53,371 bases of DNA from a virus (lineage: Duplodnaviria > Caudoviricetes), in IMG/VR virus record IMGVR_UViG_3300020473_000702, positions 1 to 53,371 of that record; one strand, 5' to 3'. Below are positions 30,614-50,632 of the stretch, in pieces (the first letter of the stretch is position 1; the number at the start of each line of letters is the position of its first letter). A program made the position numbers and the translations under genes. The notes under the pieces are model-generated. The model saw nothing but the letters and a program-made list of their open reading frames with translations, had not been told where the DNA came from and ran no database searches.

Positions 30614-33600
30614 ATGTCCAGAATTAGAGTAAACGAACTCATCAATCAAGGTGGTAGTGGTCCTACCCTTGCAGTCGAAGGTCTTAAGATACCTAGCACT
30701 AAAAATTTAGAAATTGATGGTTCTATTATTCTTAATAGTAACCCAGGATTATCAGGCCAAGTTTTAGGAAGAGGTTCTACAGGACTAGAGTGGTTCAGTA
30801 TTTCCACAACAGATAGTAACACAACTTACGTAGTGTCTGCTGTTGATGGAGTTAATCCAGTAACAGATAAAGTAATTAAATTAACTGCAGGTGGATCAGG
30901 TGGATCAAACTCTGAAGTAGTTCTTGTTGCAGGTTCAAACATAGCTTTATCCAGAGATGGATCTAGGATTACCATTGATGGCAATTTCACAGATACTGAT
31001 ACAGTAACGAAGATAGGTGCTAATGGTACAGGTTATACTGATGGAGATGTATCTATTATTGGTAGCGGTGCTACTAATATTACTCAAAGCGGTAGAACGA
31101 TCACCGTAAATTCAACTGATACAAACACAACATATACAGGAGCTAATGGTGTAACCATTAATTCTGAAAATCAGATTCAGATTGGACAGCCAGTAGGAAC
31201 AACTGACTCTGTAACATTTAACTCTCTTGTAATATCAGGTAATCTTACAGTACAGGGAACGACAACGTACTCTAATGTTACCACTGTTACTACAACAGAT
31301 AAGTTCATATTTTTAAATGATGTCCTCGCCCCTTCAGATAGTATAGCTGATGGTGGTGGTATAAAATTAAAAGGAACTACCGAGCACACTATTCTCTGGG
31401 ATAATAGTGAGGATGCTTGGAAGTCCTCAGAGAACTGGGATCTATCTATAGGTAAGGAATATAAGATCAATGGAATCAGTGTAATAGATTCTACTGGTCT
31501 TGGTAATACTGTAGTAAATTCTAGTCTTACTGGTGTTGGTGCATTAACAACTGGTATTTGGAATGCTAATACTATAGGTATAGCATATGGTGGTACTGGT
31601 GCTACCACAGCGTCAGCAGCAATCACGGCATTGTTACCTGCTCAAGCAGGTAATTCTGGTAGATATCTTACAACAGATGGTAACACATCTAGTTGGGGTC
31701 AGATACCCTCACTGTATGCAGGATGGGCAATAGCAGATGCTACTGTAAATGTTACTATTGCTAGTAATGATATTCTACAAGTAGTAGGTACTGGTGCTAC
31801 TACAGTTAACCTTGATAATACCAATAAGAAATTAACTGTTGACTCTGCAGATACTTTATACTATCTGACTGTAGAGAATGATACACAAGCTAGCACAAAG
31901 ATTGTTCGTTTAACTGATAGTAATTCTAATGCAGAGGAGTTTAAATTAACTGCTGGTACTGGTGTTACTCTTACTAGAGGTGGTGCAAATAACAATGAGT
32001 TAACTTTCTCTGTTGCACAAGACTTAAGTGCTGCTGCAACTCCTACATTTGCTGGTCTTAATGTAACTGGTACATTAGATGCTAATGCATACACTGGTAA
32101 TGCAGATCAGTTATCAGGATTAACAGGAGCAACTTCGGGAACTTATGGTAGTGCTAATACTATACCTATTATTACTGTAAGTCCAACAGGAAGAATAACA
32201 AATATTGCTACTACTTCTGTCTCTGGAGGAGGTGGAGGTGGTACTCCTAATGCTGGTGGAGTAACAGGATCAATACAGTATAATTCTGGTGGTGGTTTTG
32301 CTGGAACTACCAAATTATTATGGGAACCTGGTGGTGGTGAGCTTAGAGTAGATGGTTATATTAATACAGATAATATTGTATCTGCTGCTGGTAATATAAC
32401 TTCTCTTAACATAATAGATTCACTTAAGTTACCTAGTAAGACAACCAGTGAAAGAGATGCATTGAATGTACTCAATGGTACTTTGGTCTATAACAATAGT
32501 TTAAACCAAGTTGAGATGTATCAGGATGGAACTTGGATTCAACTAGGACAGCAAGTAAGTCAAGCAAGTATAGGTGATCTTAGTGATGTAGATACAGAAA
32601 CACTTACGGTAGGACATATACTTAAGTGGGATGGTACTAAATGGTCAGCAGTAGCTGATCATGGTGAAGGTGGTGGAGGTGGAGGTGGTAATGCAGACTT
32701 ATCTCAACTCTCTGTATACACTTTAAATCCTTCAGGTGGTGGTGGATTAACATACAGTCCTTCTAATGGTATATTCACATATGCACCACCAGATCTTAGT
32801 GTTTACCTAACATCATATGAGGAGACTGATCCAGTCTTTGTTGCTTCTGCTGCATATAATATAACTAATGTTCAAACTGCTAACTGGAGTGCTGCATATC
32901 AATGGGGTAATCATGCTAACCAAGGATATCTAACAAATATTTTAAGTGAGAATCTTTCTGATCTGTTTGATGTATCTAATGCTGTACCTTCAGATGGACA
33001 GGTTCTTAAGTGGAGTTCAGCACAGAATAAATGGGCTCCTGGATCTGATCTATCAGGTGGTGGTGGAATTGTAGGTGGATTGACTGCCTTCTCTGTATCT
33101 ACAGGATCACCTGCTTCAGGTGGTGGTAGTTTATCTTATGATAATAATGGTACGTTTACTTTCACACCTGCTGATGTATTTAATGGAGACTATAACAGTT
33201 TAACTAACACACCATCATTGTTTGATGGTACATGGAATTCTCTAACTGGTAAGCCTGCTGTACCATCTACATTAGGTACTATAACAAATGTATCTACTTC
33301 AGTTGATAGTGCTGCTGATGGTAAGGTATTAGCATGGAGTGATAATGATGGACTATGGGTTCCAACTACTATGGCTGCTGCGTCAGGTAGTGATAACTTA
33401 GATGATGTAACAGATAGAGGTAATCAGACTACTAATACTCTTGTTGTTGGTGGTGTTGATGTATCTAATGATGGTACATTGAATGGTGCTTTATCACTTA
33501 TTGATACTGGATCTCACTCGGAGATTAGATTCAGAGCAAATAGTGATACCAGTGTACAGGGAACTATCAAGGGTGAAGAAAGTGATATGTTCATCACCAC

Positions 33601-36151
33601 TGCTAATGGATACGTTAGCATCAATACTTACGCTAGGATATATTCTAATGGTAATGTAGAATTTAATAATGGTAATAATGGTACGTTTAAGGTTAGTGGT
33701 TTAACCTACCCTGCGGCTGACGGGAATCCAGGACAGGTCATGACCACAAATGGGTCGGGTGTTATTAGTTTCACCAACCTTGCTTCAGCTCCAACATCAT
33801 CAGACATACATGATGTTAGTACTAATGGTTCTACTACCAGTAATGTTATTACTGTTGGTGGGTTAGATCTTACAGGTGTGAATCATAAGTTAAGGTTCGG
33901 TCCTTCTCAGACCTTACAGATCTATCATGATACTACAGTAGATCAGATAGTAGGTAACACAGTTGATCTATCATTGAGGACTGTTAACTCTGATCTATTG
34001 ATAGGTTCTACTGGTGGTATAACAAAGATTACTAATGGTGGTGGTGCTAGTGGAGATCTATTAGCACAGTTTGTTAATGGTGGTACAGTTGAGCTCTACC
34101 ATAATGGAACAAAGCGTTTGGAAACCACTGCGACTGGAGTGACGATTTCGAGTGCTCTAGATGTTGGTTCTTTAACCATTGGTGGACAAGGATTTAGGAC
34201 AAGAGATCTTGCTGATGTATCTACTGCTGCTCCTTCACAAGGTCAGATACTGAAGTGGAATGCAAACACAAATCTATATGAACCAGCGTCTGACCTTACT
34301 TCTAGTGGTGGAGGTGGTATAAACCTAACAGATCTATCTGTTAGTACCGTAACAGCAAATGGAGGTGGTGGGTTATCATATAATGCTAACACTGGTGTAT
34401 TTGAATTTACTCCTGCTGTTGTTTCTGCTGCAGACACTCTTGATAATGTTGCTCAAAGAGGTAACACTACTACAACTTCTATCACTGCTCATGGTATTTC
34501 TAGTACCAATGATATTACTGTAGGTGATAGTATCTACCTTAAGATGGGTTCTTCACAGGATTTACAGATCAATCATAGTGGATCTGCTAATATCATTAGT
34601 AGTCCAGGTGGACATCCATTAAGAATTACTGAGAGTGGTGGTAACAGAGCAATTTTCAATGAGTCAGGTTCAGTTGAGTTGTTCTGGAATAAAGTCAAGA
34701 AATTTGAGACTAGTTCATCTGGAATTACAATTAGTGGTGAGATTACTACTACTGGTGGAAACTCAACTAATTGGAATACAGCACATGGATGGGGTAACCA
34801 TGCTAGTGCTGGATATTTAACTGGTTTGAGTGCTAGTTCCCTTAATGATCTATCAGATGTTTCAACAGCATCACCTGGTGCTGGTCAGATATTACAGTAC
34901 AATAGTGCTACATTGAAATGGGAAGCAGCAGATCAGGTGATACCACCTAGCGGTGTTGAGAAGGGTATGATTATAATCTGGTCTGGATCGATCAGTAACA
35001 TACCAGATGGTTGGGCATTGTGTGATGGTTCTGTAGTTAATGGAGAACAGACTCCTGATCTAAGAGATAGGTTTGTTGTTGGTGCTTCCATAGGAACTGG
35101 TAATGTAGGTGAAACATATTCTGTTGGTGATAGTGGTGGTAATGATTTAATAACTCTCACTGAGACTCAGTTACCTTCTCATGCTCATGGGTTGAATGAT
35201 CCTGGACATTCACACACTGCAACTGGACAACATGGACATAGTGTTACTGATAGTGGACATAATCATGACGTAAGTGATAATGGTCACTCTCATAGTTGGA
35301 GTGGTAGTGGATCATCAAGTTCACATAGTCACAACTTCAGTACTGGATCTAGTCAGGGTTCTCACTCTCACTCTATGAGTGGTAGTGTTAGTGGAAACAC
35401 AGGTAGTGGTGGAAATCATGGTCATAGTGTAAGTGATCCTGGACACCAACATACAACTGCTATACCTTCTGGAAGTACAGGTGTTGATACTGATAGTCAT
35501 GGAGCTGATACTACTGTTGTTTCTGGTTCTTCTATAAATTCATCGTGGGCTTCTAATACTGGTATAAGTATTAGTTCTGGTGGTGGCCACAGTCACAGTT
35601 TCTATGGAAATGTTGGTGGTAACACAGGTAGTGCTGGTGGACATACTCATAGTGGTACTACAGGTAGTGCAAGTCCATCTGTTTCTGTATCAGGATCTGT
35701 TGGTAGTTCCAACTCTAGTTTAACTGTAGACAGTGGTGTAGCTGCTATCTCTATAGATTCCACAAACTTAAGTCTTGGTTGTGATACTCAAACTACTGGT
35801 GCTACTGTTCTAAGTACAGGTGGTGCTGGAAACATAGACATTAGACCAAAATATTATGCTCTCTGCTACATCATGAAGGTCTCCAGTGGTTCTGGTAGTG
35901 GTGGTAGTGGTGGTGGTGCTAATGTATCTACTGATGATACTGCTCCAGCAACAGCAACTGATGGAGATTTATGGTGGGATTCAACTGATGGTACACTCAA
36001 GATCTACTACCAAGATCCTGATTCATCACAGTGGGTCTCTGCAACACCACCATTATCTCAAGAGGATTATATTAAATTAAGTGATTTGAAGACTGTCGTT
36101 GCAGCATCTAGTGATTTCGCTGATTTCCAAACAAGAATAGCAGCCCTATAG
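30614..36151 (+). CDS. Long tail fibre protein with collar domain and His-x-His needle
   Basis: 1845 aa; GMIIIWSG.I..IPDGWALCDG...TPDLRDRFVVGA collar; 11 HxH motifs; PKYYALCYIMK; C-terminal GDLWW module. Confidence 0.88.
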   Translation: MSRIRVNELINQGGSGPTLAVEGLKIPSTKNLEIDGSIILNSNPGLSGQVLGRGSTGLEWFSISTTDSNTTYVVSAVDGVNPVTDKVIKLTAGGSGGSNSEVVLVAGSNIALSRDGSRITIDGNFTDTDTVTKIGANGTGYTDGDVSIIGSGATNITQSGRTITVNSTDTNTTYTGANGVTINSENQIQIGQPVGTTDSVTFNSLVISGNLTVQGTTTYSNVTTVTTTDKFIFLNDVLAPSDSIADGGGIKLKGTTEHTILWDNSEDAWKSSENWDLSIGKEYKINGISVIDSTGLGNTVVNSSLTGVGALTTGIWNANTIGIAYGGTGATTASAAITALLPAQAGNSGRYLTTDGNTSSWGQIPSLYAGWAIADATVNVTIASNDILQVVGTGATTVNLDNTNKKLTVDSADTLYYLTVENDTQASTKIVRLTDSNSNAEEFKLTAGTGVTLTRGGANNNELTFSVAQDLSAAATPTFAGLNVTGTLDANAYTGNADQLSGLTGATSGTYGSANTIPIITVSPTGRITNIATTSVSGGGGGGTPNAGGVTGSIQYNSGGGFAGTTKLLWEPGGGELRVDGYINTDNIVSAAGNITSLNIIDSLKLPSKTTSERDALNVLNGTLVYNNSLNQVEMYQDGTWIQLGQQVSQASIGDLSDVDTETLTVGHILKWDGTKWSAVADHGEGGGGGGGNADLSQLSVYTLNPSGGGGLTYSPSNGIFTYAPPDLSVYLTSYEETDPVFVASAAYNITNVQTANWSAAYQWGNHANQGYLTNILSENLSDLFDVSNAVPSDGQVLKWSSAQNKWAPGSDLSGGGGIVGGLTAFSVSTGSPASGGGSLSYDNNGTFTFTPADVFNGDYNSLTNTPSLFDGTWNSLTGKPAVPSTLGTITNVSTSVDSAADGKVLAWSDNDGLWVPTTMAAASGSDNLDDVTDRGNQTTNTLVVGGVDVSNDGTLNGALSLIDTGSHSEIRFRANSDTSVQGTIKGEESDMFITTANGYVSINTYARIYSNGNVEFNNGNNGTFKVSGLTYPAADGNPGQVMTTNGSGVISFTNLASAPTSSDIHDVSTNGSTTSNVITVGGLDLTGVNHKLRFGPSQTLQIYHDTTVDQIVGNTVDLSLRTVNSDLLIGSTGGITKITNGGGASGDLLAQFVNGGTVELYHNGTKRLETTATGVTISSALDVGSLTIGGQGFRTRDLADVSTAAPSQGQILKWNANTNLYEPASDLTSSGGGGINLTDLSVSTVTANGGGGLSYNANTGVFEFTPAVVSAADTLDNVAQRGNTTTTSITAHGISSTNDITVGDSIYLKMGSSQDLQINHSGSANIISSPGGHPLRITESGGNRAIFNESGSVELFWNKVKKFETSSSGITISGEITTTGGNSTNWNTAHGWGNHASAGYLTGLSASSLNDLSDVSTASPGAGQILQYNSATLKWEAADQVIPPSGVEKGMIIIWSGSISNIPDGWALCDGSVVNGEQTPDLRDRFVVGASIGTGNVGETYSVGDSGGNDLITLTETQLPSHAHGLNDPGHSHTATGQHGHSVTDSGHNHDVSDNGHSHSWSGSGSSSSHSHNFSTGSSQGSHSHSMSGSVSGNTGSGGNHGHSVSDPGHQHTTAIPSGSTGVDTDSHGADTTVVSGSSINSSWASNTGISISSGGGHSHSFYGNVGGNTGSAGGHTHSGTTGSASPSVSVSGSVGSSNSSLTVDSGVAAISIDSTNLSLGCDTQTTGATVLSTGGAGNIDIRPKYYALCYIMKVSSGSGSGGSGGGANVSTDDTAPATATDGDLWWDSTDGTLKIYYQDPDSSQWVSATPPLSQEDYIKLSDLKTVVAASSDFADFQTRIAAL
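32822..32862 (+). repeat. 41-nt exact direct repeat, copy 1
   Basis: GAGACTGATCCAGTCTTTGTTGCTTCTGCTGCATATAATAT, identical to 37229-37269. Confidence 0.85.
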
Positions 36152-36152
36152 G

Positions 36153-36159
36153 ATAAATA
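36153..36159 (+). promoter_or_regulatory. Late promoter-like motif
   Basis: ATAAATA, then AAGGAG SD before ATG 36182. Confidence 0.6.
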
Positions 36160-36181
36160 AACTGGAAGGAGTAATCTAAGC

Positions 36182-39100
36182 ATGGCCATAAATTTTCCCT
36201 CAACCGCAGGGCAACTAACTGATGGTAGTTTCACCTATACTACAGGTGGGAGGACTTGGGCGTGGGATGGTGTTACTTGGGAAGCTGTTGGTATTGATAG
36301 TACAGGTACTGATGACCTAGCAGTTGTAACTAATAGGGGTGCTACTACTAATGTACAACTTAGTCTTGATGCTGGATTTATAAGTGGTGGTACTTCAACA
36401 TTCACTGGTCTTACTAGTAATGTACAGTGGTCTAGGACTGATAACGCACTGAAATGGGATGATGGATCAGCAGCATTATTTGGTGCTAGTGATGATTTAG
36501 CAATCTCTCACACTACTGCTGAAGGTAATAGGATAGTTGCTCTTGGTGGTTTAGAGATTAATAGTGATGCTATTGCTTTAAAGAATCAAGCAAGCAATGC
36601 TACATTAATTGAAGCATCTTCTGGTACAGGTGGTGAAGTAAAACTATATCAGAATAATGTAGCTAAGGTTACTGTAACAAATTTAAAAACCACTATAGCA
36701 AATACTTTAGAAGCTTCTGGTTTAACTTATCCTTCAAGTGATGGTCTGGCTGGACAAGCTATACTTACTGATGGTTCGGGTGGTCTTAGTTTCGGATCTG
36801 TTTCTGCTTCAGAGACACTTGATAGTGTAGCTGATAGAGGAAGTAGTACCGATCAAACACTATCAATTGGTGGTCTTATATTAAGTGATACAGATTCGAT
36901 AGTTTTTGGTACAGGATCTGATCTAACTATCGTTCATACAGGTAGTAAGAGTCAGATAAGACATTCTAATGCTGGTAATCCACTATCAATTGAGAGTGCA
37001 TATGATGTTAATTTATTAAAGAATGGAACCAGTGACCTTCTTGCTAAGTTTGTTCCTGATGGAGAGGTTAAGTTATATCATTCTGCAGCAGAGAAATTAG
37101 CTACTACGGCGACAGGAATTACAGTTAGTGGTGTTGTTACTGCTACTGGTGGTACTTCAACTGATTGGAATGAGGCTCATGGTTGGGGTGATCATAGTAC
37201 ACAGGGATATTTAACTTCAATATCTGCAGAGACTGATCCAGTCTTTGTTGCTTCTGCTGCATATAATATTACTAATACTAAGATAACTAACTGGGATGCA
37301 GCATATGCATGGGGTGATCATGCTTCTGGTGGGTACGTAGCACTAACTGCTTTGTCTGTTGGTGCACCAAATGCTGCTAGTGGTAACGGAAACATAACAT
37401 ATAACAGTGCAAATGGAGTCTTTTCATTCACCCCACCAGATCTTAGTAATTATTTAACATCTTACACGGAGACCAGCACCCTTGCTAATGTTATTGCTAG
37501 GGGATCAACATCAAATAACTCTGCTACCATTGGTGGTAATGGTAGTACAGGTGGTATCACGCTTGCTGATGGTCTTCTATCAGTAAGAACAGGTACTGGA
37601 AACGTGGCATCTATCGACCTCTATTGTGAGGTTAGTAATGCACATAAGGTAAGTATAAAAGCACCATCACATTCTAACTTCAGTGGTAACATTAACTTCA
37701 CGTTACCTGGAACTCACGGTAGTGTAGATCAAGTTTTACGTACAGATGGATCGGGAAATACAAGTTGGGTTAATCAGACTGGATCTTATACTGAGACTGA
37801 TACACTTTCTTCAGTAACTGGTCGTGGTAGTACAACTACAACTGCTATAACTGTTGGTGGACTGACTGTTTCTGCTGGTAATTCTGTTGCAGAGTTAAAC
37901 TTATCTACTGATAATAATAATCAATATAATGTAACATTAAAAGCTCCATCAGCATCCTTATTATCTGGTAACACAACCTTTGTATTCCCACCAAATAACG
38001 GTAGTGCTAACCAAGTTCTTATCAGTGATGGATCTGGTAATACATCTTGGTCAACTATATCAGGTGGTGGTGGAGGAGGATCTAGTGTTACTATTAATGA
38101 TGCAGCACCTGGATCACCTAGCAGTGGTGATCTATGGTGGAACTCTAACGCTGGTCAGTTAAAGATATACTATAACGATGGTAGTAGTTCGCAGTGGGTT
38201 GATGCTGCTGGTGGTGGTGGAGGTAGTGGTGGTTCTGGTATAACAGTATACTCTGGTGTAGCAAACTATCCACTTGCTTCAACTCATGAAGGACAGATAG
38301 CATATGCTAGTGATATTAATGCAATGCATTACTCTGATGGAAGTGATTGGACAGGTCAGAGAATAGTTACTACAACAGAAAGTGATTCTGATTTTGATAC
38401 CTTGTTAGGTAACTATGAGAAGACATATACTCTTTCTGCGAATGAACATACTGGTGGTACTACATCAGAGAATTCTGCTAGAAAAGTTATTAAGTTAGTA
38501 GATAATAATGGTACAGATGGAGGTAAGTTTACTCTTAATGTTGGTGGTGGTTTAACATCAACACTTACTACTGATGCATGGAGTAACCAATCTATAAACC
38601 TAGGTCTATCTCTTGGAAGTATTCATAACTATACTTTGAGTTCAGATATTAATGCTGGACCTTATGCTACTGATCTAACGCTCCAAGATTCTGTTAGAGG
38701 TATTAGCAATACAATCAAGTTTGCTGGTGCTGATGGACTTACTGTTGAGAGAACAGATGCTAACACAATAACCTTCAGGCAAGGTGGTACTTCGGTTACT
38801 CAGTACACCGATGATATGGCGAAGGATGCTACATGGTCTTCCATAAGCAACGGTACTCATACTGGTATTACTTTTGCCTATGATAGTGGTACAAAATTCC
38901 TCAGTGCTACCGTTACTGGTGGTGGAGGAGGTGGTGGTGGATTAACCTACACATTAACTGGTAGAAATACAAGTTCTACTAATGCATTCATTGATCTAAC
39001 AGATAATGCAGCAACTCCAAATGTTAATAGCATAGAGTTTATTGGTAGTAATGGAACTGATGTTGCATGGGATGGTGCTAACAAAAGAATTACTATCAAC

Positions 39101-39814
39101 AGTAAAGACTATGCAGTAGGAGCTAATGCTGCTGCTAGTGGTGGTGGAGGTTTATCGTTAACTGGTAGCACCTTTACATACACACCACCTGACCTAACAA
39201 GTTTCTTAACATCTGTACCTCAAGCATCAGCAACAATTCTTGGTGGTATTAAAGTAGGTGCTAACCTTACTATGGATGCTGCTACTGGTGTTCTTAGTGC
39301 TAACGCTGGAGCATATACATTACCTACTGCTGGTGTTACTGCTAGTGGAACTCTTGGTGGTGTTAAGGTTGATGGTTCTACTGTTACTATTGATGGTAAT
39401 GGAGTCATCAGTTCAACAGGTGGATCAACTGCTCCATCTATAGGTGATGTTAATGCAACATCAACTAGCATTGCTGATAATGCACGTGGTGAAGTAACAA
39501 TTACAGGACATAAAGGGTATGTTCTTTATAAGATTACTTCATCACATGAAGCTTGGGTAAGATTGTATGTTGATGATGCTACAAGACAAGCTGATAAAGA
39601 TAGAAGTGAAGGTGCTGATCCAGCACCAGGTAGTGGTGTAGTAGCAGAGGTTAGAACTTCTGCAGCAAATCAAGAAGTTCTTATAACACCTGGTGTTATG
39701 GGATTCAATAATAATAATCCAAGAGATGAAAACATTTACGTTTCAATAAATAATAGAAGCGGTTCAGCCGCCACTATACAAGTGACCCTAACCGTTCTAA
39801 AAATAGGAGAGTAG
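36182..39814 (+). CDS. Fibre/stalk protein with MAINFP N-terminus
   Basis: 1210 aa G/T/S-rich; MAINFP...W.WDG.TW; internal GDLWW module; C-terminal domain shared with 46360-47232. Confidence 0.82.
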   Translation: MAINFPSTAGQLTDGSFTYTTGGRTWAWDGVTWEAVGIDSTGTDDLAVVTNRGATTNVQLSLDAGFISGGTSTFTGLTSNVQWSRTDNALKWDDGSAALFGASDDLAISHTTAEGNRIVALGGLEINSDAIALKNQASNATLIEASSGTGGEVKLYQNNVAKVTVTNLKTTIANTLEASGLTYPSSDGLAGQAILTDGSGGLSFGSVSASETLDSVADRGSSTDQTLSIGGLILSDTDSIVFGTGSDLTIVHTGSKSQIRHSNAGNPLSIESAYDVNLLKNGTSDLLAKFVPDGEVKLYHSAAEKLATTATGITVSGVVTATGGTSTDWNEAHGWGDHSTQGYLTSISAETDPVFVASAAYNITNTKITNWDAAYAWGDHASGGYVALTALSVGAPNAASGNGNITYNSANGVFSFTPPDLSNYLTSYTETSTLANVIARGSTSNNSATIGGNGSTGGITLADGLLSVRTGTGNVASIDLYCEVSNAHKVSIKAPSHSNFSGNINFTLPGTHGSVDQVLRTDGSGNTSWVNQTGSYTETDTLSSVTGRGSTTTTAITVGGLTVSAGNSVAELNLSTDNNNQYNVTLKAPSASLLSGNTTFVFPPNNGSANQVLISDGSGNTSWSTISGGGGGGSSVTINDAAPGSPSSGDLWWNSNAGQLKIYYNDGSSSQWVDAAGGGGGSGGSGITVYSGVANYPLASTHEGQIAYASDINAMHYSDGSDWTGQRIVTTTESDSDFDTLLGNYEKTYTLSANEHTGGTTSENSARKVIKLVDNNGTDGGKFTLNVGGGLTSTLTTDAWSNQSINLGLSLGSIHNYTLSSDINAGPYATDLTLQDSVRGISNTIKFAGADGLTVERTDANTITFRQGGTSVTQYTDDMAKDATWSSISNGTHTGITFAYDSGTKFLSATVTGGGGGGGGLTYTLTGRNTSSTNAFIDLTDNAATPNVNSIEFIGSNGTDVAWDGANKRITINSKDYAVGANAAASGGGGLSLTGSTFTYTPPDLTSFLTSVPQASATILGGIKVGANLTMDAATGVLSANAGAYTLPTAGVTASGTLGGVKVDGSTVTIDGNGVISSTGGSTAPSIGDVNATSTSIADNARGEVTITGHKGYVLYKITSSHEAWVRLYVDDATRQADKDRSEGADPAPGSGVVAEVRTSAANQEVLITPGVMGFNNNNPRDENIYVSINNRSGSAATIQVTLTVLKIGE
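37229..37269 (+). repeat. 41-nt exact direct repeat, copy 2
   Basis: Identical to 32822-32862. Confidence 0.85.
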
Positions 39815-39819
39815 TTCCA

Positions 39820-42252: not shown

Positions 42253-42527
42253 TGGCTGATTATACTCTTACAGATTTAGGAACTGTACAATCAAAGGGAG
42301 TTCCAGCTACGAGGATGAAGCACACATCAGTTGTGTGGATACTGAAAACTATGTTTAGTTCTTTAGATCATGGTACTGGTATAAGTAATGAATATAACAT
42401 AAGTGATTTGAAATCATCAAATCAAACTACTCCTATTGCAAATGGACATAAGCCAGAGCTTGCAATTGGTAATGGTAGAAGACCTGTCTATGGTCAACAA
42501 TATCCTCGTGGATATTATAATAAATAA
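42252..42527 (+). CDS. Small structural protein with C-terminal GRRP..GQ.YPR motif
   Basis: TAATG coupling to the 810-aa gene. Confidence 0.7.
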   Translation: MADYTLTDLGTVQSKGVPATRMKHTSVVWILKTMFSSLDHGTGISNEYNISDLKSSNQTTPIANGHKPELAIGNGRRPVYGQQYPRGYYNK

Positions 42528-42546
42528 CCCAAGGGGTCAGGTATAA

Positions 42547-45483
42547 ATGGCAATAAATTTTCCCAGTAGTCCTAGTGTAAACGATACCCATACCCATAAT
42601 GGTAAGGAGTGGACGTGGAATGGTACATCTTGGGTTCAAAGTACAAATGCAAGCAATTATACTTTACCTATTGCTACTGCTGGTGCTCTCGGTGGTATTA
42701 GGGTAGGCAATAGATTAACAATAGATTCTAGTACAGGTGTCTTGGATGCTGATGTACAAGGGGGCGGTGGATCTTCTTATACTGATAGTGATGTTGATAC
42801 CCACTTAAATCAATCTAATCCTACTAGTGGTCATGTCCTTTCATGGAATGGATCTGATTATGCATGGGTAGCTCAGACTACTGATACAAATACACAACTA
42901 ACAACTGAACAAGTTCAGGACATTGTTGGTGCAATGGTTGATGGTGGAACCGAAACTAGAATAGGTGTAACGTATGATGATACTGCTGGAAAATTAAATT
43001 TTGTTGCTGACGATCAATCATCTACTCCATACACTAACAGTGATGTTGATACACATCTGAATCAATCAAACCCAACTAGCGGATATGTTCTTGCGTGGAA
43101 TGGATCTGACTATACTTGGGTAGCTCAGACTGGTGGAGGAAGTGGTGGATCAGGTGGTAGTATACTACAATTAATACAGGAGATTGGTCCTTCTGGTCAG
43201 ATCAGTGCTGTATCTGGACAGGGTAGCAGTGCTGCTTGGATAGATGTTATTGATAAAGACATTACTATTACTGCTGGTGCTAATAAGAGAGTAAAGATTG
43301 AAGTTAATGGTGAACCTAAATTAGATGGTTTCAGAACCATGAGGTATGAGATCAGATTGATACGTACCACTGGAGGAACTGCAACAACATTATACGAAGG
43401 TTTTCAAGGTCTAGCTGATAGTAGTGATAACTATTCAACTATGAATGGTGTCCTTTACTTAGATACACCAGGTGCAGGTACACACAACTATAAGTATCAG
43501 TTTAGACAGGTAGTAAGTTGGAATAGTAGTACTGCTAAAGTAGAACCTGATTCAATGGTTATGCTTCTCACTGAGATGGATCTTAGTGCTAATGTTTTAT
43601 CTGCTAGTGATGTTGATAACCACTTAAATCAGTCCAATCCTACTAGTGGATATGTTTTAAGTTGGAATGGTAGTGACTATGCATGGGTAGCTCAGACTAC
43701 TGATACTGATACAGTTTATACCAACAGTGATGTTGATACACATCTCAATACAAGTGGTGCTTCTTCAGGTGAAATTCTTCAATGGAATGGATCTGACTAT
43801 GCTTGGGTAGCACAATCTAATACTACTTCATTTATTGCTCTAACTGATACACCAAATTCTTACAGTGCTGATCAGTGGGTAAAGGTTAATGCTGCTGGTA
43901 ATGCTATTGAATTTACTACTGCTCCTGCAGAATCAGATACTCTTGATACAGTAACGGGAAGAGGTGCGACAACTACAAATGATGTAACAGTTGGGAATTT
44001 TATTTGTGATAACTTAACTGTTAATGGTACTCAGACAATAATCGATAGTAACACTGTAAACATTGGAGATAATATTTTAACTCTTAATAGTGATGAATCT
44101 GGTACTCCATCACAGAATGCTGGACTTGAAATTGAAAGAGGTACATATACCAATGTATCAATTCGTTGGAATGAGACTACAGATAAGTGGCAGTATACTA
44201 ATGATGGTAGTAACTATTCTGATATTGGTAGTAGCAATTATACCAACACTGATGTTGATACACATCTGAATCAATCTAATCCTACTAGCGGATATGTTCT
44301 TTCATGGAATGGTTCAGACTATGCATGGGTAGCTCAGACTACTGATACAGATACAAATACATTCACTGGTCTAACAGGTACACCGTCTTCATACACTGCT
44401 AATAAATGGTTGAAGGTAAATGCAGGTGGTACTGCTTTAGAATATACTGATGCTCCTTCTGGAGCTTCTGTTACTGTATCAGACAATGCTCCTTCAGGTC
44501 CAAGTGCTGGTGATCTATGGTGGGACTCTGATAATGGTAGGTTAAAGGTATATTATACTGATGCAACACCTGATTCTCAGTGGGTAGATGCTAGTCCACT
44601 TGGTGCTAACAGTAGTATTGGTGTTGGTAATACAAGTATTTCTATAACTGATACTGGTACTAACGGTACTATCCAATTCAATACAGATGGTACTGACCGT
44701 TGGGAGATCACTAGTGGTGGTCACATTCTTCCAAATACAAATGCTTCATTTGATATAGGTAGTGCAGAGTATAAGGTAAGACACTTGTTCTTATCAGACA
44801 ACAGTCTTAAGTTCGTTGATGATAATAATACAGAACATGCATTGAGTGTTAATAGTAACAAACTACACTACGAAGGCAAAGAGGTTCTAGCAAACTGTGT
44901 CTTTACTGGATTGGATAATAATGATACTGTCAAATATAATGGTACGAACTGGGTTAATGTAGAGTTTCCATCAGCTTTTGATGGAACTTTAGCTGGTGAT
45001 CTAACTGTTGATACTAATGTATTGAAAGTTGATACTGCTCAGAACCAAGTAGGTATTGGTACTGCTAGTCCTAATAGTCTTCTACATTTGTATCAACCTA
45101 CTGATGCTGTGTATATTACCTTTGGTCAAGGTCAACATAATACAAACTACTGGCTTGGAACCACTGGTACTACTGCTGGATTCTTTATAGAGCAAGGTAG
45201 CAGTAATAATAGTTTACTAACAGCAGATGCTTCTGATTATGTTTCATTGTATGGTGCTGGAACCAAGAGGTTTGAGACTACTGCTAGTGGTGTCACGATA
45301 ACAGGAGACATAAGTGTTACTGGTAGTGGTTTATATAATGATGGAGCTTTGGATGCTCGTATTAATACTGCTACTGCTACATCTAATCAACTTCTTAGTT
45401 GGACTGGTAGTGATTACGATTGGATTGATCCACCAACACCAGCACCACCAGCATTTCAATCTAACTGGAGGATACCATTATGA
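42547..45483 (+). CDS. Fibre/stalk protein with MAINFP N-terminus and five 31-aa repeats
   Basis: 978 aa; SDVDTHLNQSNPTSG.VL.WNGSDYAWVAQT x5; internal GDLWW module; ATAAATA at 42520-42526 upstream. Confidence 0.82.
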   Translation: MAINFPSSPSVNDTHTHNGKEWTWNGTSWVQSTNASNYTLPIATAGALGGIRVGNRLTIDSSTGVLDADVQGGGGSSYTDSDVDTHLNQSNPTSGHVLSWNGSDYAWVAQTTDTNTQLTTEQVQDIVGAMVDGGTETRIGVTYDDTAGKLNFVADDQSSTPYTNSDVDTHLNQSNPTSGYVLAWNGSDYTWVAQTGGGSGGSGGSILQLIQEIGPSGQISAVSGQGSSAAWIDVIDKDITITAGANKRVKIEVNGEPKLDGFRTMRYEIRLIRTTGGTATTLYEGFQGLADSSDNYSTMNGVLYLDTPGAGTHNYKYQFRQVVSWNSSTAKVEPDSMVMLLTEMDLSANVLSASDVDNHLNQSNPTSGYVLSWNGSDYAWVAQTTDTDTVYTNSDVDTHLNTSGASSGEILQWNGSDYAWVAQSNTTSFIALTDTPNSYSADQWVKVNAAGNAIEFTTAPAESDTLDTVTGRGATTTNDVTVGNFICDNLTVNGTQTIIDSNTVNIGDNILTLNSDESGTPSQNAGLEIERGTYTNVSIRWNETTDKWQYTNDGSNYSDIGSSNYTNTDVDTHLNQSNPTSGYVLSWNGSDYAWVAQTTDTDTNTFTGLTGTPSSYTANKWLKVNAGGTALEYTDAPSGASVTVSDNAPSGPSAGDLWWDSDNGRLKVYYTDATPDSQWVDASPLGANSSIGVGNTSISITDTGTNGTIQFNTDGTDRWEITSGGHILPNTNASFDIGSAEYKVRHLFLSDNSLKFVDDNNTEHALSVNSNKLHYEGKEVLANCVFTGLDNNDTVKYNGTNWVNVEFPSAFDGTLAGDLTVDTNVLKVDTAQNQVGIGTASPNSLLHLYQPTDAVYITFGQGQHNTNYWLGTTGTTAGFFIEQGSSNNSLLTADASDYVSLYGAGTKRFETTASGVTITGDISVTGSGLYNDGALDARINTATATSNQLLSWTGSDYDWIDPPTPAPPAFQSNWRIPL

Positions 45484-45944
45484 CGGCAACAGTTTATAGA
45501 GGAACACTTTTTGGTGATGCAACAAACCATATCAATAATTTTTATACCAATTCTACTGGTGGTAACGTAAGAATTGTATGGTACTACTTTCATATAGGGA
45601 GTTCTCAGCGATTTAGATTCTATGTTGGTGCATCGACACCGCCATCTCCTGCTTCTTTAGGTCTTTCAACTACTTCTCCAATTGATTATAACTATTACGG
45701 AGATGCTAATACTATTAGAATGGGTGATTTTGGCCAAGGTAATTTCGTAACTGGAAAACATTACGGAATTGCTGGTGATAATCCAGGTGGTGCTACTGCT
45801 GGTTCTAATGGGAATCTCCCAACTGAACTGATATTACCTGCAGGTGATAAAATGTCGTTGTTTATTCCTGAAGAGATAACACCTACTTCTCAAGAATACT
45901 GGGAGTTTGCATTGAGATATAATTTTCTACAAATACCAGAATAA
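45480..45944 (+). CDS. Small fibre-associated protein (paralog A)
   Basis: ATVY...N.TGGNVRI...GKH...PTELIL...IPE. Confidence 0.75.
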   Translation: MTATVYRGTLFGDATNHINNFYTNSTGGNVRIVWYYFHIGSSQRFRFYVGASTPPSPASLGLSTTSPIDYNYYGDANTIRMGDFGQGNFVTGKHYGIAGDNPGGATAGSNGNLPTELILPAGDKMSLFIPEEITPTSQEYWEFALRYNFLQIPE

Positions 45945-45947
45945 ATT

Positions 45948-46358
45948 ATGGCAGCAACAGTATACAGTTTAAATGCTTCCAGTAACCAGTCTGGAACTCT
46001 ACTTAACCATCAGAACACTTCTGGTGGTAATCAGAGGGTGATTATAAATTATATAAGGATGGCTAAACAGACTTCCACTAATGGATATATGAATATTTTG
46101 TTCGGACCTAGTGGTGATCTTTCTGATCTAAAGATAAGTTATTGTACTGCTTTTGGTAAGCATGTAGCATGTAGTTATGATATGTACAATAATAATGGTC
46201 ACAATGGTCATCTGTTTCAGTCACATAGTGGTTCTGGTGCAAACGAAGAACAAAATGCACCCACAGAAATAATGCTAGCTGATCAGGAGTATTTCCAAAT
46301 CACTTGGTATGGTCCTAACTTTATCAAGGGTTGTAATATAGTAGTAATACCAGAGTAA
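45948..46358 (+). CDS. Small fibre-associated protein (paralog B)
   Basis: ATVY...NTSGGNQRV...GKH...PTEIML...IPE. Confidence 0.75.
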   Translation: MAATVYSLNASSNQSGTLLNHQNTSGGNQRVIINYIRMAKQTSTNGYMNILFGPSGDLSDLKISYCTAFGKHVACSYDMYNNNGHNGHLFQSHSGSGANEEQNAPTEIMLADQEYFQITWYGPNFIKGCNIVVIPE

Positions 46359-46359
46359 C

Positions 46360-47232
46360 ATGGCCATAAATTTTCCAACATCACCATCAACTAATGATAC
46401 TCATACCCACAGTGGTGTTACGTATGAGTGGGATGGTACTTCATGGCTAGCACAAGGTAGCACAGCAACTTATACCTTACCAACTGCATCATCAACAGTA
46501 CTAGGTGGTATTAAAGTAGGTAATAGATTAACAATAAATTCTGGTGTATTAGAGGCAGACGTACAAGCAAGTACTTATGGTAACAGTGATGTTGATACTC
46601 ATCTTAATCAATCTAATCCTACCAGTGGATATGTTTTAAGTTGGAATGGTAGTGACTATGCATGGGTAGATAACGCAGGTTATAGTAACAGTGATGTTGA
46701 TACACATTTGAATCAATCAAACCCAACTAGCGGTCATGTTCTTAGTTGGAATGGTTCGGACTATGCATGGACAGCTCAGACTGGTACAACTTACAGTGCT
46801 GGTACTGGGTTGAGTCTTGTTGGTACTACATTTAATGTTACTAGTACATACACAAGCTCAAGGACAACTGCAGTTGCAACAACATCAAGTCTAGCTGATC
46901 AAGCATCAGGTAACTTAGACATTACTGCAGCAAAAGCTTACGCACTACTTAAGATACAAACATCACATGCAGCATGGGTAACTCTTTACACTGATACTAC
47001 TAGTAGAACTAGTGATGCTAATAGAAACATAACAACTGATCCACTACCAGGTTCAGGTGTTATTGCAGAGGTACTACTATCTGATGGTGGTGTACAAAAA
47101 ATTTCTCCTGGTTTGATAGGATACAATGATGATGCAACACCAAGTACTACAGTATATGCAAAGGTTCAGAATAGAAGTGGTAGTGCTGCTACCATAATAG
47201 TAACACTCCATTACCTTGCTCTAGAGGGTTAA
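46360..47232 (+). CDS. Short fibre/stalk protein with MAINFP N-terminus
   Basis: 290 aa; two 31-aa repeats; C-terminal domain homologous to that of 36182-39814. Confidence 0.8.
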   Translation: MAINFPTSPSTNDTHTHSGVTYEWDGTSWLAQGSTATYTLPTASSTVLGGIKVGNRLTINSGVLEADVQASTYGNSDVDTHLNQSNPTSGYVLSWNGSDYAWVDNAGYSNSDVDTHLNQSNPTSGHVLSWNGSDYAWTAQTGTTYSAGTGLSLVGTTFNVTSTYTSSRTTAVATTSSLADQASGNLDITAAKAYALLKIQTSHAAWVTLYTDTTSRTSDANRNITTDPLPGSGVIAEVLLSDGGVQKISPGLIGYNDDATPSTTVYAKVQNRSGSAATIIVTLHYLALEG

Positions 47233-47233
47233 T

Positions 47234-50200
47234 ATGGCTCAGTATATTGTAACGCTGAAGCAACGTGATCAGTTGGATGGTTTCTATGCTGATATGAAGG
47301 AAGGTGGGTATAAGCTTATTAGTAAGAGACCTATTAGTAGATGTACACATTATGATCTAACAGAGAGTCAAGCAGATACTATTGCTGGTGACTCTAGAGT
47401 TCTTGCTGTTGAGTTACATCCAGATGAAGATGATAACCTTATAATTGGACCGCATGGATATACTAACAACGAAGTAGCTGTTGCTGCTGGTGATTTTTAT
47501 AAGGGTATTACTTCAGATTCAGGTGATTATCAGTGGGGGCACTTACACTGTGCTGGTGATGATGCACAAAGAAGAAAAGGAACATGGGGTTCTGGATCAG
47601 TCACTGATACTGCTGAATGGTTTAATAATGGTAAGCATGTTGATGTAGTTATCTGTGATAACAATGCTGCTTATGATTGTCAAGAGTGGTACAGTACACA
47701 TGACCCAGCTAAGAATAGATATGTTCAGTATGATTGGTATGCTAACCACAACACAGAGGCTCTTAGTATAGATGATGATGGATACACATCAGCACCTAGT
47801 AACTATACAAAGTACTATCCTAATGCTGGTCACACAGATTATCATGGTACTCATGTAGCAGGTACTGTTGCTGGTAAGTATTATGGATGGGCTACTGAAG
47901 CAAACATCTATACCATTCAGTGTTTGAGTGGGATGGATCCTAATCCATTGCCTACTATGATCATGATGGATTATTTGAGAGCATTCCATAGATCTAAAGC
48001 TATTAATCCAGAGACAGGACATCGGAATCCTACCATTACAAATCATAGTTGGGGTTCGGGATGGGATTTAGGAGCAAATGGTTCAGGTATTTTTGATACT
48101 GGATATACTATTTCAGATATAACTGAAATAGTTTGGAGAGGAACTACATATAACTCATCTAATCCTGGTCCATCTGGTTGGACTATGAGTGGTATTCATC
48201 AGGACTTTGGTATTGGACAAGATAAGACATATATTCCCTACTACAACACAGCAATGGCTGCTGATATTGAGGATGCTGTAGAGGATGGTATAGTAGTTAT
48301 TGCTTCAGCAGGTAACTCAGATTTCTATGTTGCAACTGACTCTACAAGTCCTGATTGGAATAACATTGTCCAGTTTGATACTTCTAAAGTAAGTTTTAAC
48401 ATGTCTGCAGGCCAAGGTCGTGCCTATTATAATAGAGGATCAGCACCAGGAAATGCACCAGGTGCTATCTGTGTTGGTTCTCTTGATAAAGCTAGTGACT
48501 TCTCTAAGTCATCATTCTCATGCTATGGTGAGGCAGTAGATGTATGGGCTCCTGGTACTCATATTAATTCGGCATTTAATTCTCTAGGATATAATGATGC
48601 AAAGTATGGTGGAGATAATTATTTCTATGCTATAAGTGGAACTAGTATGGCTTCACCACAGGTGACTGGAGTTGCAGCATGTCTAGCAACAGGTAAAGAA
48701 AGGTTTACTAACAGTGATGTGAAATCTTTCCTTCAGAACTACTGTAAGGATGGTGATATGACCTTTGATAATACTTATACACCTTCAAGACATGCAGTAT
48801 ATCAACTTACTCTTACTGCAACCACAAATGGTTGGGATGTAAGTGGTCCTGATAGATATAATTCTCATGTTAATGCTATTAATCCTACGATTGAGATCTT
48901 TGAGGGTGATACAGTAGAGTTTGTTTTCAATTCACCTGAACCTCCTCTTTTTGTTACATCATCTCCTGTAACTGGGTTGACTCCTGGTTCACCACCACAA
49001 GGACAAGTCTCTTGGTTCCCACATCAAGGTACTAGTACAAGTGGAACATTCAATGCAACTCCAGGATGGCCAGGTAGTGCTGGTGATTACTACTATGCGT
49101 GTGGTGATATGGGATTATCATTTACTACATGGCCACAAGGTATTCTTAGAGTGCATCCCCCACTACACTATGATGATCCGCATATTGGTGCTGGATCTGT
49201 AAACAAATATTTGTTATCAGCAAACCCAAGACCAGTAGCAGATGGGTTTCCTAGTAGGTGGTATCAGCAACAACTTAAGGGTAGAAGAAGAGATGTAGAA
49301 GCTACCTCAAATAACCCACCCAATATGCAACTCTATCCTAGAGAGAATGTATATCATAGAGGGTTTAAAATACATCAGAGAATACTTTTAGATGAAGCTT
49401 ACTGGATAAATGATGTAACATTACCTTCTAATACTGATAGTACTAATAGTGAAAATCAGGTAAAGGATTTCGCTCTCGATTCTAATGGAAACTTTTGGAT
49501 TTGTGGAGCGAGGGATGATAATGCTGGAGCATTGAATAGTTATATTGTGAACATAACTAAGACAGGTGTATATAATGCATCAGTTGATTGTAATGCTGCT
49601 GATTCTTTAACTCCTTTTGGAATTGCAGTTGATGATAATGATGATATCTATACCTATCATGGGTATGGAAGACTTGCTAAATTTAGTCTGAGTGGTTCTT
49701 CTTTAACTCAGGATTATTGTAGAGAAAGTGAGTGGGGTGGTGGAAGTACTTTTGGTGAGGGTATGGGTGGTAGAGGATGTTTATTTGCTAATGGAACTAA
49801 CCTTACCGTGTGGGGTAATAGATCTGGTATTCATTTAGGACATACTTTTGATGGTTCTACTGGTGATGTAAGTTCTGGTGGTTACACTTATGTTAATGGT
49901 GGTAACCAAGCTTATGTTTATTTCTATGGTGCTAATAAAATAGGTGGTACAATTTATGCATGTGGACGTTCTTATGGTGGAAACACAAACGGTAGCAATG
50001 CTTTTTGGGTAGTAGCAACTGTAGGTTATGGGGTTGCAGGTTCAATGAAGTTTTATAGTGGTGTCTCTAATGCTACATGTTATGGAGTAACAAGAGATTC
50101 TGATAATAAATTTTATGTTTGTGGACAGATGGATAATGTTCCAACACTCATGAAGATTGATGCCTTTAACAATGGTGTTATAGGACAAGGAGTTGCATGG

Positions 50201-50632
50201 GGTAGAAAGTTAAACACCTCTGGTAGGTATAGTGATATTGCTGCTGATTCTCAAGGTTGTGTGTACGCAGCAACTGAAGGTGGTCAGATAGTGAAGTATA
50301 ATAGTAGTGGTACAATCATCTGGGCTAAGTCTGTTGCTAATCAGATTCAGAGAATAACAATAGTAGATGATGTAATACATGGTATTGGTACTATAGGAAA
50401 TACTTCATTTAAAGTTTTCCGATTACCTATCTCAGGTGAGGGTCTTACTGATTGGAGTATCACTGATTATAGTTTCACCTATACTAATCAAGGTGGTCTA
50501 GGTGGTCCCGCTACTCAAAGTGATTTTGGTTCTACTGCAAATAGTGCTGTTATATGGGGTAATTTTACATCTTCTGATTATACTATCAATCTTGCTTCCG
50601 AAGTATTTACTCCGTCTTTAACAAACTTATAA
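47234..50632 (+). CDS. Subtilisin-like S8 serine protease with C-terminal accessory (beta-propeller-like) domains
   Basis: Triad motifs VDVVICD, HGTHVAG, GTSMASPQV; oxyanion SAGN; I9-like N-terminal prodomain pattern; C-terminal (A/V).DS.GN..V.G repeats. Confidence 0.9.
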   Translation: MAQYIVTLKQRDQLDGFYADMKEGGYKLISKRPISRCTHYDLTESQADTIAGDSRVLAVELHPDEDDNLIIGPHGYTNNEVAVAAGDFYKGITSDSGDYQWGHLHCAGDDAQRRKGTWGSGSVTDTAEWFNNGKHVDVVICDNNAAYDCQEWYSTHDPAKNRYVQYDWYANHNTEALSIDDDGYTSAPSNYTKYYPNAGHTDYHGTHVAGTVAGKYYGWATEANIYTIQCLSGMDPNPLPTMIMMDYLRAFHRSKAINPETGHRNPTITNHSWGSGWDLGANGSGIFDTGYTISDITEIVWRGTTYNSSNPGPSGWTMSGIHQDFGIGQDKTYIPYYNTAMAADIEDAVEDGIVVIASAGNSDFYVATDSTSPDWNNIVQFDTSKVSFNMSAGQGRAYYNRGSAPGNAPGAICVGSLDKASDFSKSSFSCYGEAVDVWAPGTHINSAFNSLGYNDAKYGGDNYFYAISGTSMASPQVTGVAACLATGKERFTNSDVKSFLQNYCKDGDMTFDNTYTPSRHAVYQLTLTATTNGWDVSGPDRYNSHVNAINPTIEIFEGDTVEFVFNSPEPPLFVTSSPVTGLTPGSPPQGQVSWFPHQGTSTSGTFNATPGWPGSAGDYYYACGDMGLSFTTWPQGILRVHPPLHYDDPHIGAGSVNKYLLSANPRPVADGFPSRWYQQQLKGRRRDVEATSNNPPNMQLYPRENVYHRGFKIHQRILLDEAYWINDVTLPSNTDSTNSENQVKDFALDSNGNFWICGARDDNAGALNSYIVNITKTGVYNASVDCNAADSLTPFGIAVDDNDDIYTYHGYGRLAKFSLSGSSLTQDYCRESEWGGGSTFGEGMGGRGCLFANGTNLTVWGNRSGIHLGHTFDGSTGDVSSGGYTYVNGGNQAYVYFYGANKIGGTIYACGRSYGGNTNGSNAFWVVATVGYGVAGSMKFYSGVSNATCYGVTRDSDNKFYVCGQMDNVPTLMKIDAFNNGVIGQGVAWGRKLNTSGRYSDIAADSQGCVYAATEGGQIVKYNSSGTIIWAKSVANQIQRITIVDDVIHGIGTIGNTSFKVFRLPISGEGLTDWSITDYSFTYTNQGGLGGPATQSDFGSTANSAVIWGNFTSSDYTINLASEVFTPSLTNL

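Follow-up and report, generated by a model that had tools for sequence, protein, structure and literature searches.

A candidate plug-and-socket joint between the tail fibre proteins of a T4-like cyanophage gene cluster

A large share of the main photosynthetic bacteria of the ocean fall victim to cyanomyoviruses, and how the many 'tail fiber-like' genes of these phages make an appendage is largely unknown. The 2005 analysis of phage P-SSM2 could only list candidate tail-fibre genes (PMC1079782). The same question is raised by a viral contig of 53,371 nucleotides (IMG/VR record IMGVR_UViG_3300020473_000702; the window, below, means this whole stretch), in which the long open reading frames (ORFs) all lie on the + strand and a run of very large fibre genes, between positions 30614 and 50632, repeats two short protein modules, one at the very start of genes and the other further inside them. 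A sequence-only reading of this DNA had taken the two modules for complementary halves of a docking joint. Do they hold separate fibre proteins together and, if so, which protein would sit on which? One modelled complex and the comparative patterns of co-occurrence, counts and order make it, in our judgement, fairly probable that the N-terminal module of one fibre (here the plug, or MAINFP module) docks on the second module (here the socket, or GDLWW module) of another. The genes and modules on which the argument turns are the following.

30614..36151, + strand: P0001, a fibre of 1845 amino acids (aa), the putative chain starter, with an MSRIRV N-terminus, a collar domain, an HxH-rich stretch, a Gly/Ser linker, a C-terminal socket and two short helices
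35921..36046, + strand: socket 1, residues 1770-1811 of P0001, 34 residues short of the C-terminus
36182..39814, + strand: P0002, a 1210-aa fibre that begins with a plug, has a socket in mid-chain and ends in a beta-sandwich tip found also in P0004
36182..36301, + strand: plug 1, residues 1-40 of P0002
38084..38209, + strand: socket 2, residues 635-676 of P0002, between two Gly-rich linkers
42547..45483, + strand: P0003, a 978-aa fibre that begins with a plug and carries five hairpin repeats and, at residues 641-682, a socket
42547..42666, + strand: plug 2, the N-terminus of P0003, found by motif and profile
44467..44592, + strand: socket 3, in P0003, found by motif and profile
46360..47232, + strand: P0004, a 290-aa stalk, the putative chain end, with a plug, two hairpin repeats, a beta-sandwich tip and no socket
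46360..46479, + strand: plug 3, the N-terminus of P0004, found by motif and profile

A six-frame scan of the contig for GD[LIVM]W[WFY] gave exactly three matches (35963, 38126 and 44509), all on the + strand and inside the 1845-, 1210- and 978-aa ORFs, and the same scan for M[AS][ILV]NFP also gave exactly three, each at the first codon of an ORF (36182, 42547 and 46360). The socket is a unit of about 42 aa with the motif AP..P..GDLWW.S..G.L..YY.D...QWV, and between its three copies the identity is 54-55% over 42 aa, 21 columns being invariant. The plug, MAI[ND]FP.SP...D.....G..W.W[DN]G..W, takes up the first 35-40 residues or so, and its copies share 42-60% identity over 40 aa. Enriched profiles recovered the window sockets with E values of 1e-20 to 2e-22, the rest of the window staying at noise level, and the window plugs with 4e-13 to 5e-20. 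The sequence-only reading had counted three GDLWW modules and three MAINFP gene starts, which the scan and the profiles bear out, and it had placed the modules correctly to within a codon; its description of the first fibre as carrying a socket and an MSRxRV N-terminus in place of a plug, and of the last, 290-aa stalk as carrying a plug and no socket, also holds in sequence and profiles. The count of exactly three is valid for the 53,371-base contig, and the whole phage may differ from it.

Both modules are common beyond this contig. The socket alignment, used as a pattern against IMG/VR, matched at least 598 stretches, 409 of which were confirmed by tblastn among the matches listed, and 76 loci were kept; in the phage collection a socket-like stretch was found in 114 records and a plug-like one in 34 (E<=0.01). 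Six-frame translations of 81 sources (the window, four phage loci and the 76 IMG/VR loci), scanned with profiles from the three window copies, yielded 208 socket and 121 plug matches with zero overlap between the two sets. All 121 plugs stood at the start of an open frame, with Met at profile position 1 in 94 of them, Met within 4 residues in 24 and Val (GTG) in 3, which would fit a need for a free N-terminus. The sockets could stand at any point of a protein, 26 of the 208 lying within 60 residues of the C-terminus and 54 within 150. Some proteins hold little beyond a plug and a socket (156 aa in locus L016, 212 aa in L001 and L020, 120 aa in L018). Pfam has no family for either module, and neither profile found anything below E 0.37 among the chain sequences of the PDB.

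Searches with the plug motif or profile alone over-count badly, as its second half, W.W[DN]G..W, cross-matches Kelch repeats: a Pfam scan of the 10 top plug-profile matches identified four as Kelch-repeat proteins. The 21,116 matches of the plug profile among 1.84 billion proteins (E<=0.001), most of those listed covering only that half, were consequently dropped as a measure of family size. In the Kelch-repeat proteins P0126, P0146, P0151 and P0186 the second half of the plug matched 11-29 stretches each.

If the two modules act together they should be found together, and this was the case in 25 phage records, related genomes that represent mostly one per genus, which were searched with both profiles (matches kept at E<=1e-4). 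Both modules were present in 15 records, neither in 10, and one alone in none; every socket-positive record carried a plug (15/15). Thirteen of the positive records had come in through a socket match, for which the presence of plugs is a real test, and two through a search with P0004. The ten records with neither module were the ten cyanomyoviruses picked blind (S-PM2, Syn9, P-SSM4, P-HM1, S-SM1, S-SM2, S-SSM7, Syn19, P-RSM4 and S-ShM2), three of which gave partial plug matches only (E 0.002-0.008), not starting from profile position 1. Sockets and plugs were equal in number in nine of the 15: four of each in P-SSM2, three of each in ACG-2014i, and a single pair in S-RSM4, S-CAM1, S-SCSM1, S-WAM2, Sf-CH1b, G001 and G002. 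Of the 1:1 covariation that the sequence-only reading had suggested as a test across cyanomyoviruses, the strong covariation and the lack of genomes with one module alone thus stand, but strict equality does not: six of the 15 records are unequal, and tandem socket arrays and extra plugs exist. The socket protein of S-SCSM1 is annotated 'virion protein' in its record, and 45 virion proteins of this phage were reportedly identified by mass spectrometry (PMC9602691).

The order of the modules along the genome is also regular. Loci were written as strings of sockets (S) and plugs (P) with the enriched profiles, and 24 of them looked complete, having 3 kb or more of sequence before the first module and 4 kb or more after the last. 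Sockets equalled plugs in 19 of these (20 with contiguous tandem sockets taken as one site), all 24 were within one of equality, and the Spearman coefficient was 0.84. The balanced strings were SP (11), SPSPSP (3, including the window), SPSPSPSP (1), SSPP (2), SPSSPP (1) and SSPPSP (1); all 19 read as brackets in which a socket opens and a plug closes, in an effective sample that is small because there are only 10 distinct strings. The unbalanced loci were S (2), SPP (S-H9-1), SSP (1) and one tandem pair with a single plug. The nearest upstream module was a socket for 114 of 141 plugs, against 74.5 +/- 4.9 (maximum 93) in 2000 within-locus shuffles, and a plug gene came directly after a socket gene in 47/121 instances, against 72/1054 after other genes (odds ratio 8.7). 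Where a protein has two sockets, two plug genes tend to come after it, as in the strings S2 P P, then S B2 P P, and also S. B. B2.. P P, and the gene strings of P-SSM2 and ACG-2014i run S, PS, P, S, P, with a separate S, P pair elsewhere in P-SSM2. At the opening end of such strings, the chain-starting socket protein of L010 comes after the baseplate hub and a tail fibre gene, and the N-terminus of the socket-bearing orf295 of P-SSM2 was likened to T4 baseplate proteins by Sullivan et al. 2005 (PMC1079782). A pairing of adjacent sockets and plugs by subtype is visible as well; it is inseparable from conserved synteny and was not used as evidence.

The junction predicted to come first in the window was modelled directly, with three copies of residues 1760-1845 of P0001 and three of residues 1-60 of P0002 given to ESMFold2 together with our own alignments of 66 and 48 rows. 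The interaction prediction score from aligned errors (ipSAE) was 0.73 (0.66, 0.73 and 0.79 in the separate runs), while three controls scored 0.19, 0.00 and 0.00; in the calibration 58 of the 80 solved complexes reached this mark, as did 2 of the 110 mismatched pairs, a guide that is only rough here given our own alignments and the set-up of three plus three chains. The runs agreed in at least 62% of contacts, with a predicted local distance difference test (pLDDT) of at least 64 for the partner. The predicted interface comprises plug residues 1-8, 22-26 and 31-39 and residues 15-16, 18, 30-35, 37, 40, 42-45, 47-50 and 52-60 of the socket fragment; the closest pairs are the W48-V49-S50 strand of the socket with the T32-A35 strand and W26 of the plug, and Y40 and V49 of the socket with F5 of the plug. 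It takes in all five of the plug columns that are invariant or nearly so (M1, A2, F5, P6 and W33). GDLWW itself is not among the listed interface residues and may therefore form the core of the socket unit. As monomers in AlphaFold2 (AF2), the C-terminal fragment of P0001 has a pLDDT of about 90 for residues 11-50 and shows four strands and then two helices, and P0004 has 81-87 for residues 1-30, its N-terminal 32 residues or so forming three short strands.

That the modules are complementary is partly supported, by the prediction for the one pairing modelled, which beat its controls (0.73 against 0.19), and by the covariation of copy numbers; that they are two unrelated halves, as the sequence-only reading implied, is not, for intermediate repeats match both profiles. 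The plug and socket motifs have a grammar in common: P.SP, an acidic residue, an aromatic pair, G, [DN]G and W-V. Direct comparison of the profiles is weak (hhalign local P 0.003 over 8 columns; global score 8.3 against a maximum of 7.8 for 30 column shuffles), and the claim of homology therefore rests on the intermediates: in the tandem-repeat proteins P0128, P0134, P0135, P0176 and P0254, which had come up with the plug profile, 29 segments are matched by both profiles over the same residues. Two of these proteins, P0128 (44.7 bits) and P0176 (28.5 bits), exceed the 27-bit cut-off of Pfam DUF2793 (PF10983), a family that found 0/66 sockets and 0/48 plugs among the module sequences at E<=1. 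Plug and socket are probably diverged copies of one hairpin-repeat family, as far as such comparisons of sequence go, and the contact between them may be the stacking contact of repeats within one chain, now made between chains.

Further hairpin units are present in the fibres of the window. P0003 has five SDVDTHLNQSNPTSGYVLSWNGSDYAWV-like hairpin units (42829-44328), P0004 has two (46627-46770) and P0001 has five looser G..L.W......W units (32612-34921). These units match the second half of the plug profile weakly, at scores under the threshold. In the window each of the three sockets matches phrog_3304 at about positions 108-169 of 177 (P0001 residues 1773-1813, E 6.7e-6; P0002 635-675, 7.4e-5; P0003 624-684, 8.1e-5), as do the sockets of L010 and L035; the name of this family, 'L-shaped tail fiber protein assembly', is an annotation label only.

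Taken together, these results suggest an appendage in which separate trimeric fibre proteins would be joined through a reusable two-part joint. The socket would fold into a compact beta unit of four strands, in most cases flanked by Gly-rich or collagen-like segments, and would probably form a trimeric node in the fibre. The plug would be a short beta meander that needs a free N-terminus, and three plugs are predicted to pack on the socket trimer, with the MAINFP residues and the last plug strand against the second and third strands of the socket (Y40, QWV) and the residues just beyond. In the window, P0001 would start the chain, probably anchored by its MSRxRV domain, and its C-terminal socket would take P0002; the mid-chain socket of P0002 would take P0003 as a side branch, and the socket of P0003 would take the 290-aa stalk P0004, the assembly presumably proceeding in gene order. 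In P0001 a Gly/Ser linker behind the collar and HxH region carries socket 1, and socket 2 stands between Gly runs; a Gly/Ser-linked socket behind an apparently complete collar-type fibre end is easier to understand as an added docking module than as part of the shaft.

Several observations weigh against such docking and have to be set beside it. Sockets and plugs are unequal in S-H9-1 (1:2), ACG-2014f (2:4), S-CAM7 (1:3), S-N03 (13:11), MC09 (13:10) and S-B68 (10:3). Sockets may stand in tandem, four of them about 50 aa apart in L042 and five amid the collagen-like segments of a 1960-aa protein in L037, and at several loci such an array (~50-aa spacing) or a five-socket collagen-like protein comes with just one or two plugs, which indicates that sockets also serve a purely structural use. 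P-values on order and neighbours overstate independence, since kinship among the loci and genomes and the general clustering of fibre genes both enter into them. The modelled complex covers one of nine pairings and comes from a single program (ESMFold2), with our own alignments and a set-up of three plus three chains unlike that of the calibration; conserved socket columns are not enriched in its interface (7 of 14); and if plug and socket are homologous, the model could merely stack repeats as within one chain. Finally, the weak fold matches of the socket model, with Z scores of up to 4.5, are trimerisation elements.

The last of these points leads to the main rival explanation, according to which the modules are nodes of trimerisation and registration only: the plug would start the folding of the trimer, the sockets would keep the shaft in register, and no docking between proteins would take place. 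The fold matches favour it, namely the C-terminal interdigitated region of P22, Det7 and CBA120 TSP3 (Z 3.2-4.5; CBA120 TSP3 4.5, P22 tailspike 3.2-3.5) and the trimerisation domains of collagen XV/XVIII (Z 3.7-4.0), but all these Z scores are under the tool's level for a meaningful match, so that the matches are compatible with a trimeric node and prove nothing; Foldseek found nothing for the socket model at E<=0.001. The surroundings of the modules also speak for this rival. Socket flanks are often Gly/Ser-rich or collagen-like (G+S is 39% within 15 residues of the socket on either side and 25% in the proteins as a whole); tandem arrays stand at a spacing of about 50 aa; many plugs run straight into collagen-like Gly-X-Y repeats; and the 29 segments matched by both profiles belong to DUF2793-type proteins. 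What it leaves unexplained are plugs that are never internal and whose MAINFP is conserved at the N-terminus, bracket-like counts that match in 19 of 24 loci, and the existence of plugless starters and socketless enders, and it is also at odds with a hetero-complex model that beats its controls. We consider it unlikely. Among Pfam families, Cyclophil_like2 was matched by 37 of 66 sockets and was judged a chance motif (best E 0.0017, under its cut-off).

Phage fibres with an N-terminal domain in common usually attach through it to the baseplate, and the plug might likewise be a common anchor for some other site, on the baseplate or on an adaptor, with the sockets as unrelated structural nodes. 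The window itself offers a case of the same logic, P0001 and the 1057-aa protein encoded upstream of it sharing another N-terminal domain, and the excess of plugs over sockets in S-H9-1, ACG-2014f and S-CAM7 could be read in the same way. Yet plugs without sockets occur in 0/25 genomes, the number of plugs follows that of sockets, a genome with 11 plug proteins, the most observed, would require as many sites, and the plug-socket model beats its controls, all of which makes this alternative improbable.

The remaining alternative, that the modules are mainly recombination linkers for the exchange of fibre cassettes and have no binding role, is very improbable: conserved motifs in T-even adhesin genes have been proposed as aids to homologous exchange, the related locus L006 has a differently built third member and yet the same modules, and the three plug genes open with 17 nearly identical bases, but the mean column identity of the DNA is just 71% for plugs and sockets, many third-codon positions differ with the protein motif kept, so that selection acts on the protein, and recombination alone leaves the N-terminal position, the matched counts and the predicted complex unexplained. 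Recombination and docking roles are compatible and not exclusive. L006 is 91-93% identical to the window in P0001 and P0002, and its third member is a protein of 507 aa (16645-18168) in place of the 978-aa P0003, a mosaic of pieces 64-76% identical to P0003 with internal segments missing, plug and socket kept, and three small genes behind it against two in the window. By its sequence, this third member is an example of cassette remodelling.

The other genes of the region, to which some of these arguments refer, are as follows.

26455..29628, + strand: a 1057-aa fibre-like protein, without plug and without socket (phrog_6002, virion structural protein)
29961..30578, + strand: a 205-aa protein, possibly a fibre assembly chaperone, with a weak match to Pfam PF16778 Phage_tail_APC (E 3.5e-4, 20.8 bits, under the 26.6-bit cut-off)
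39820..42527, + strand: two genes, of 810 aa and 91 aa, between P0002 and P0003, placed by position and without plug or socket in the module scans
45480..46358, + strand: two small look-alike genes, of 154 aa (45480-45944) and 136 aa (45948-46358), with the N-termini MTATVY and MAATVY
47234..50632, + strand: P0005, a 1132-aa subtilisin-like S8 protease (Pfam PF00082, E 2e-25)

A tail-fibre assembly cluster of a T4-like cyanophage is the best explanation of the region. P0001-P0003 are called tail fibre proteins from their PHROG matches. A tblastn search of the phage collection with P0004 found 80 records, among them 51 Synechococcus phages and 4 Prochlorococcus phages; megablast of the region against the phage collection gave no match; the relatives S-H9-1, P-SSM2, S-N03 and marine virus AG-345-F15 are classified as Kyanoviridae. 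To judge by such similarity, the closest relatives of the window genes are cyanomyoviruses, T4-like phages of that family.

The 1057-aa protein and P0001 have in common an MSRxRV N-terminal domain of about 210 aa (26455-29628 and 30614-31250; BLASTP 38% identity over 213 aa, E 7e-28), which is probably, from this similarity, a common anchor for two different fibres. The N-terminal start of the 810-aa socket fibre of S-H9-1 visibly resembles the MSRxRV type. The collar domain of P0001 is PF07484 (Pfam, residues 1451-1497), and after it, in Gly/Ser-rich sequence, there is a long H-x-H run (residues ~1500-1700, ~35100-35700), which we take to recall the metal-binding needle of T4 fibre tips. At the other end of the cluster, residues 1092-1208 of P0002 and 173-288 of P0004 are 47% identical (39214-39814 and 46876-47232) and form the beta-sandwich of about 117 aa that belongs to phrog_15343; Foldseek with the AF2 model of P0004 found no match in the PDB at E<=0.001, and the tip is a generic beta-sandwich.

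The genes that follow the stalks had been described as globular payloads, a description that we cannot support: the 154-aa and 136-aa proteins belong to a recurrent small family, and nothing shows carriage. Small proteins of this M[AT]ATVY type (131-154 aa) recur within plug and socket clusters in two or three tandem copies, L006 having three (18165-19411), and L010 has one of 140 aa (10832-11251). Despite their similar N-termini the 154-aa and 136-aa proteins gave no BLASTP match to each other at E<=1e-3, and no Pfam or PHROG family matched the small family. The 810-aa and 91-aa genes are conserved in L006 (89% identity), and S-H9-1 has a pair of matching size and position (767 and 77 aa). 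Against the ESM Atlas the 810-aa and 154-aa proteins matched unnamed viral clusters only. For the 154-aa, 136-aa and 810-aa proteins the roles of chaperone and of tip protein are equally possible.

A subtilisin-like gene lies directly after the final plug-only stalk (254-290 aa) in four lineages, S-H9-1 and P-SSM2 among them; the loci are the window (46360-50632), L002 (24518-27383), L003 (21772-24368) and L035 (10496-12923), the call in L035 resting on N-terminal similarity only. This suggests that the stalk and the subtilisin-like gene are a functional pair, either a stalk plus its enzyme or a stalk plus a maturation protease. Just downstream of the fibre cluster, at 50659-51123, there is a gene for another 154-aa protein, with Pfam DUF6450 (E 7e-33).

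If docking by plug and socket is real, it would provide a rule, readable from sequence, of which fibre sits on which, and lists of fibre genes would become testable wiring diagrams. It would also explain how cassettes are exchanged without breaking assembly, as in L006, where the third member has changed and the modules are kept; the joint may let phages swap their host-recognition parts, and it would help to predict or re-target host range in pairs of cyanophage and host kept in the laboratory. A wider generalisation, which we put forward as a serious but still tentative possibility, is that this is a universal reusable joint of marine T4-like phages, with plug and socket made from one hairpin repeat, fibre trees wired by bracket-like gene order and diverged subtypes acting as orthogonal pairs. 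In that case the modules would amount to a genetically encoded construction kit for the evolution of host range, and protein engineering would gain a small, portable trimer-to-trimer connector.

Branched complexes of receptor-binding proteins are known in the phages G7C (gp63.1/gp66), CBA120 (TSP1-4) and the Klebsiella KP32 type, in which N-terminal anchors dock on T4 gp10-like domains (PF07880). The likeness to the predicted joint lies in a conserved short N-terminus that docks on a dedicated domain of the fibre encoded by a neighbouring gene, and in several distal domains on one appendage. Here, however, the docking unit has 42 aa, can be repeated within one protein and stands between collagen-like segments or at the C-terminus, and plug and socket seem to be derived from one repeat family. 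No PF07880 domain was found in P0001-P0005 (Pfam, E<=0.01); it is listed in the precomputed annotation of P0120, a relative of P0004 (76% identity over 26% of the query). The socket model matches the N-terminal part of CBA120 TSP4 (residues 33-78) weakly, with Z 2.5-2.8 and a root-mean-square deviation of 4.3 A over 45 residues.

The long tail fibre of T4 is the nearest serial precedent, and every junction in it is unique. It is a chain of gp34, gp35, gp36 and gp37, as outlined in the P-SSM2 paper (PMC1079782), and resembles the proposed arrangement in being made of separate proteins placed end to end on a T4-like virion, with gene order roughly that of assembly, whereas here one type of joint is reused 1 to ~13 times per genome. 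None of the gp34, gp35, gp36 and gp37 families was found in P0001-P0004 (Pfam, E<=0.01), Collar PF07484 in P0001 being the only match. The established trimerisation units (the T4 fibritin foldon, collagen XV/XVIII and the C-terminus of the P22 tailspike) are like the modules in their small size, their build of beta-hairpins and their place beside collagen-like or fibrous segments, and gave no sequence match in Pfam scans (E<=0.01 for proteins, E<=1 for modules) or among PDB chains. This includes Fibritin_C, which we take to be the Pfam family of the foldon, a unit that the module motif presumably resembles: its profile had no match in the scans of proteins or modules. We know of none of these units that receives the N-terminus of another protein. 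The repeats of DUF2793 (PF10983) follow the same grammar (P.SP..GD, an aromatic pair, G.L.Y and [DN]G..W) and occur in phage tail and collagen-like proteins, but they stand in tandem within one chain, and the window modules do not reach PF10983. Full-text literature searches found no paper with either GDLWW or MAINFP, nor, among the papers listed for the architecture of cyanophage fibres, a description of plug or socket modules. The appendage thus seems to work like the known branched and serial fibres, but through a different joint, one that is very small, reusable and apparently of an undescribed kind.

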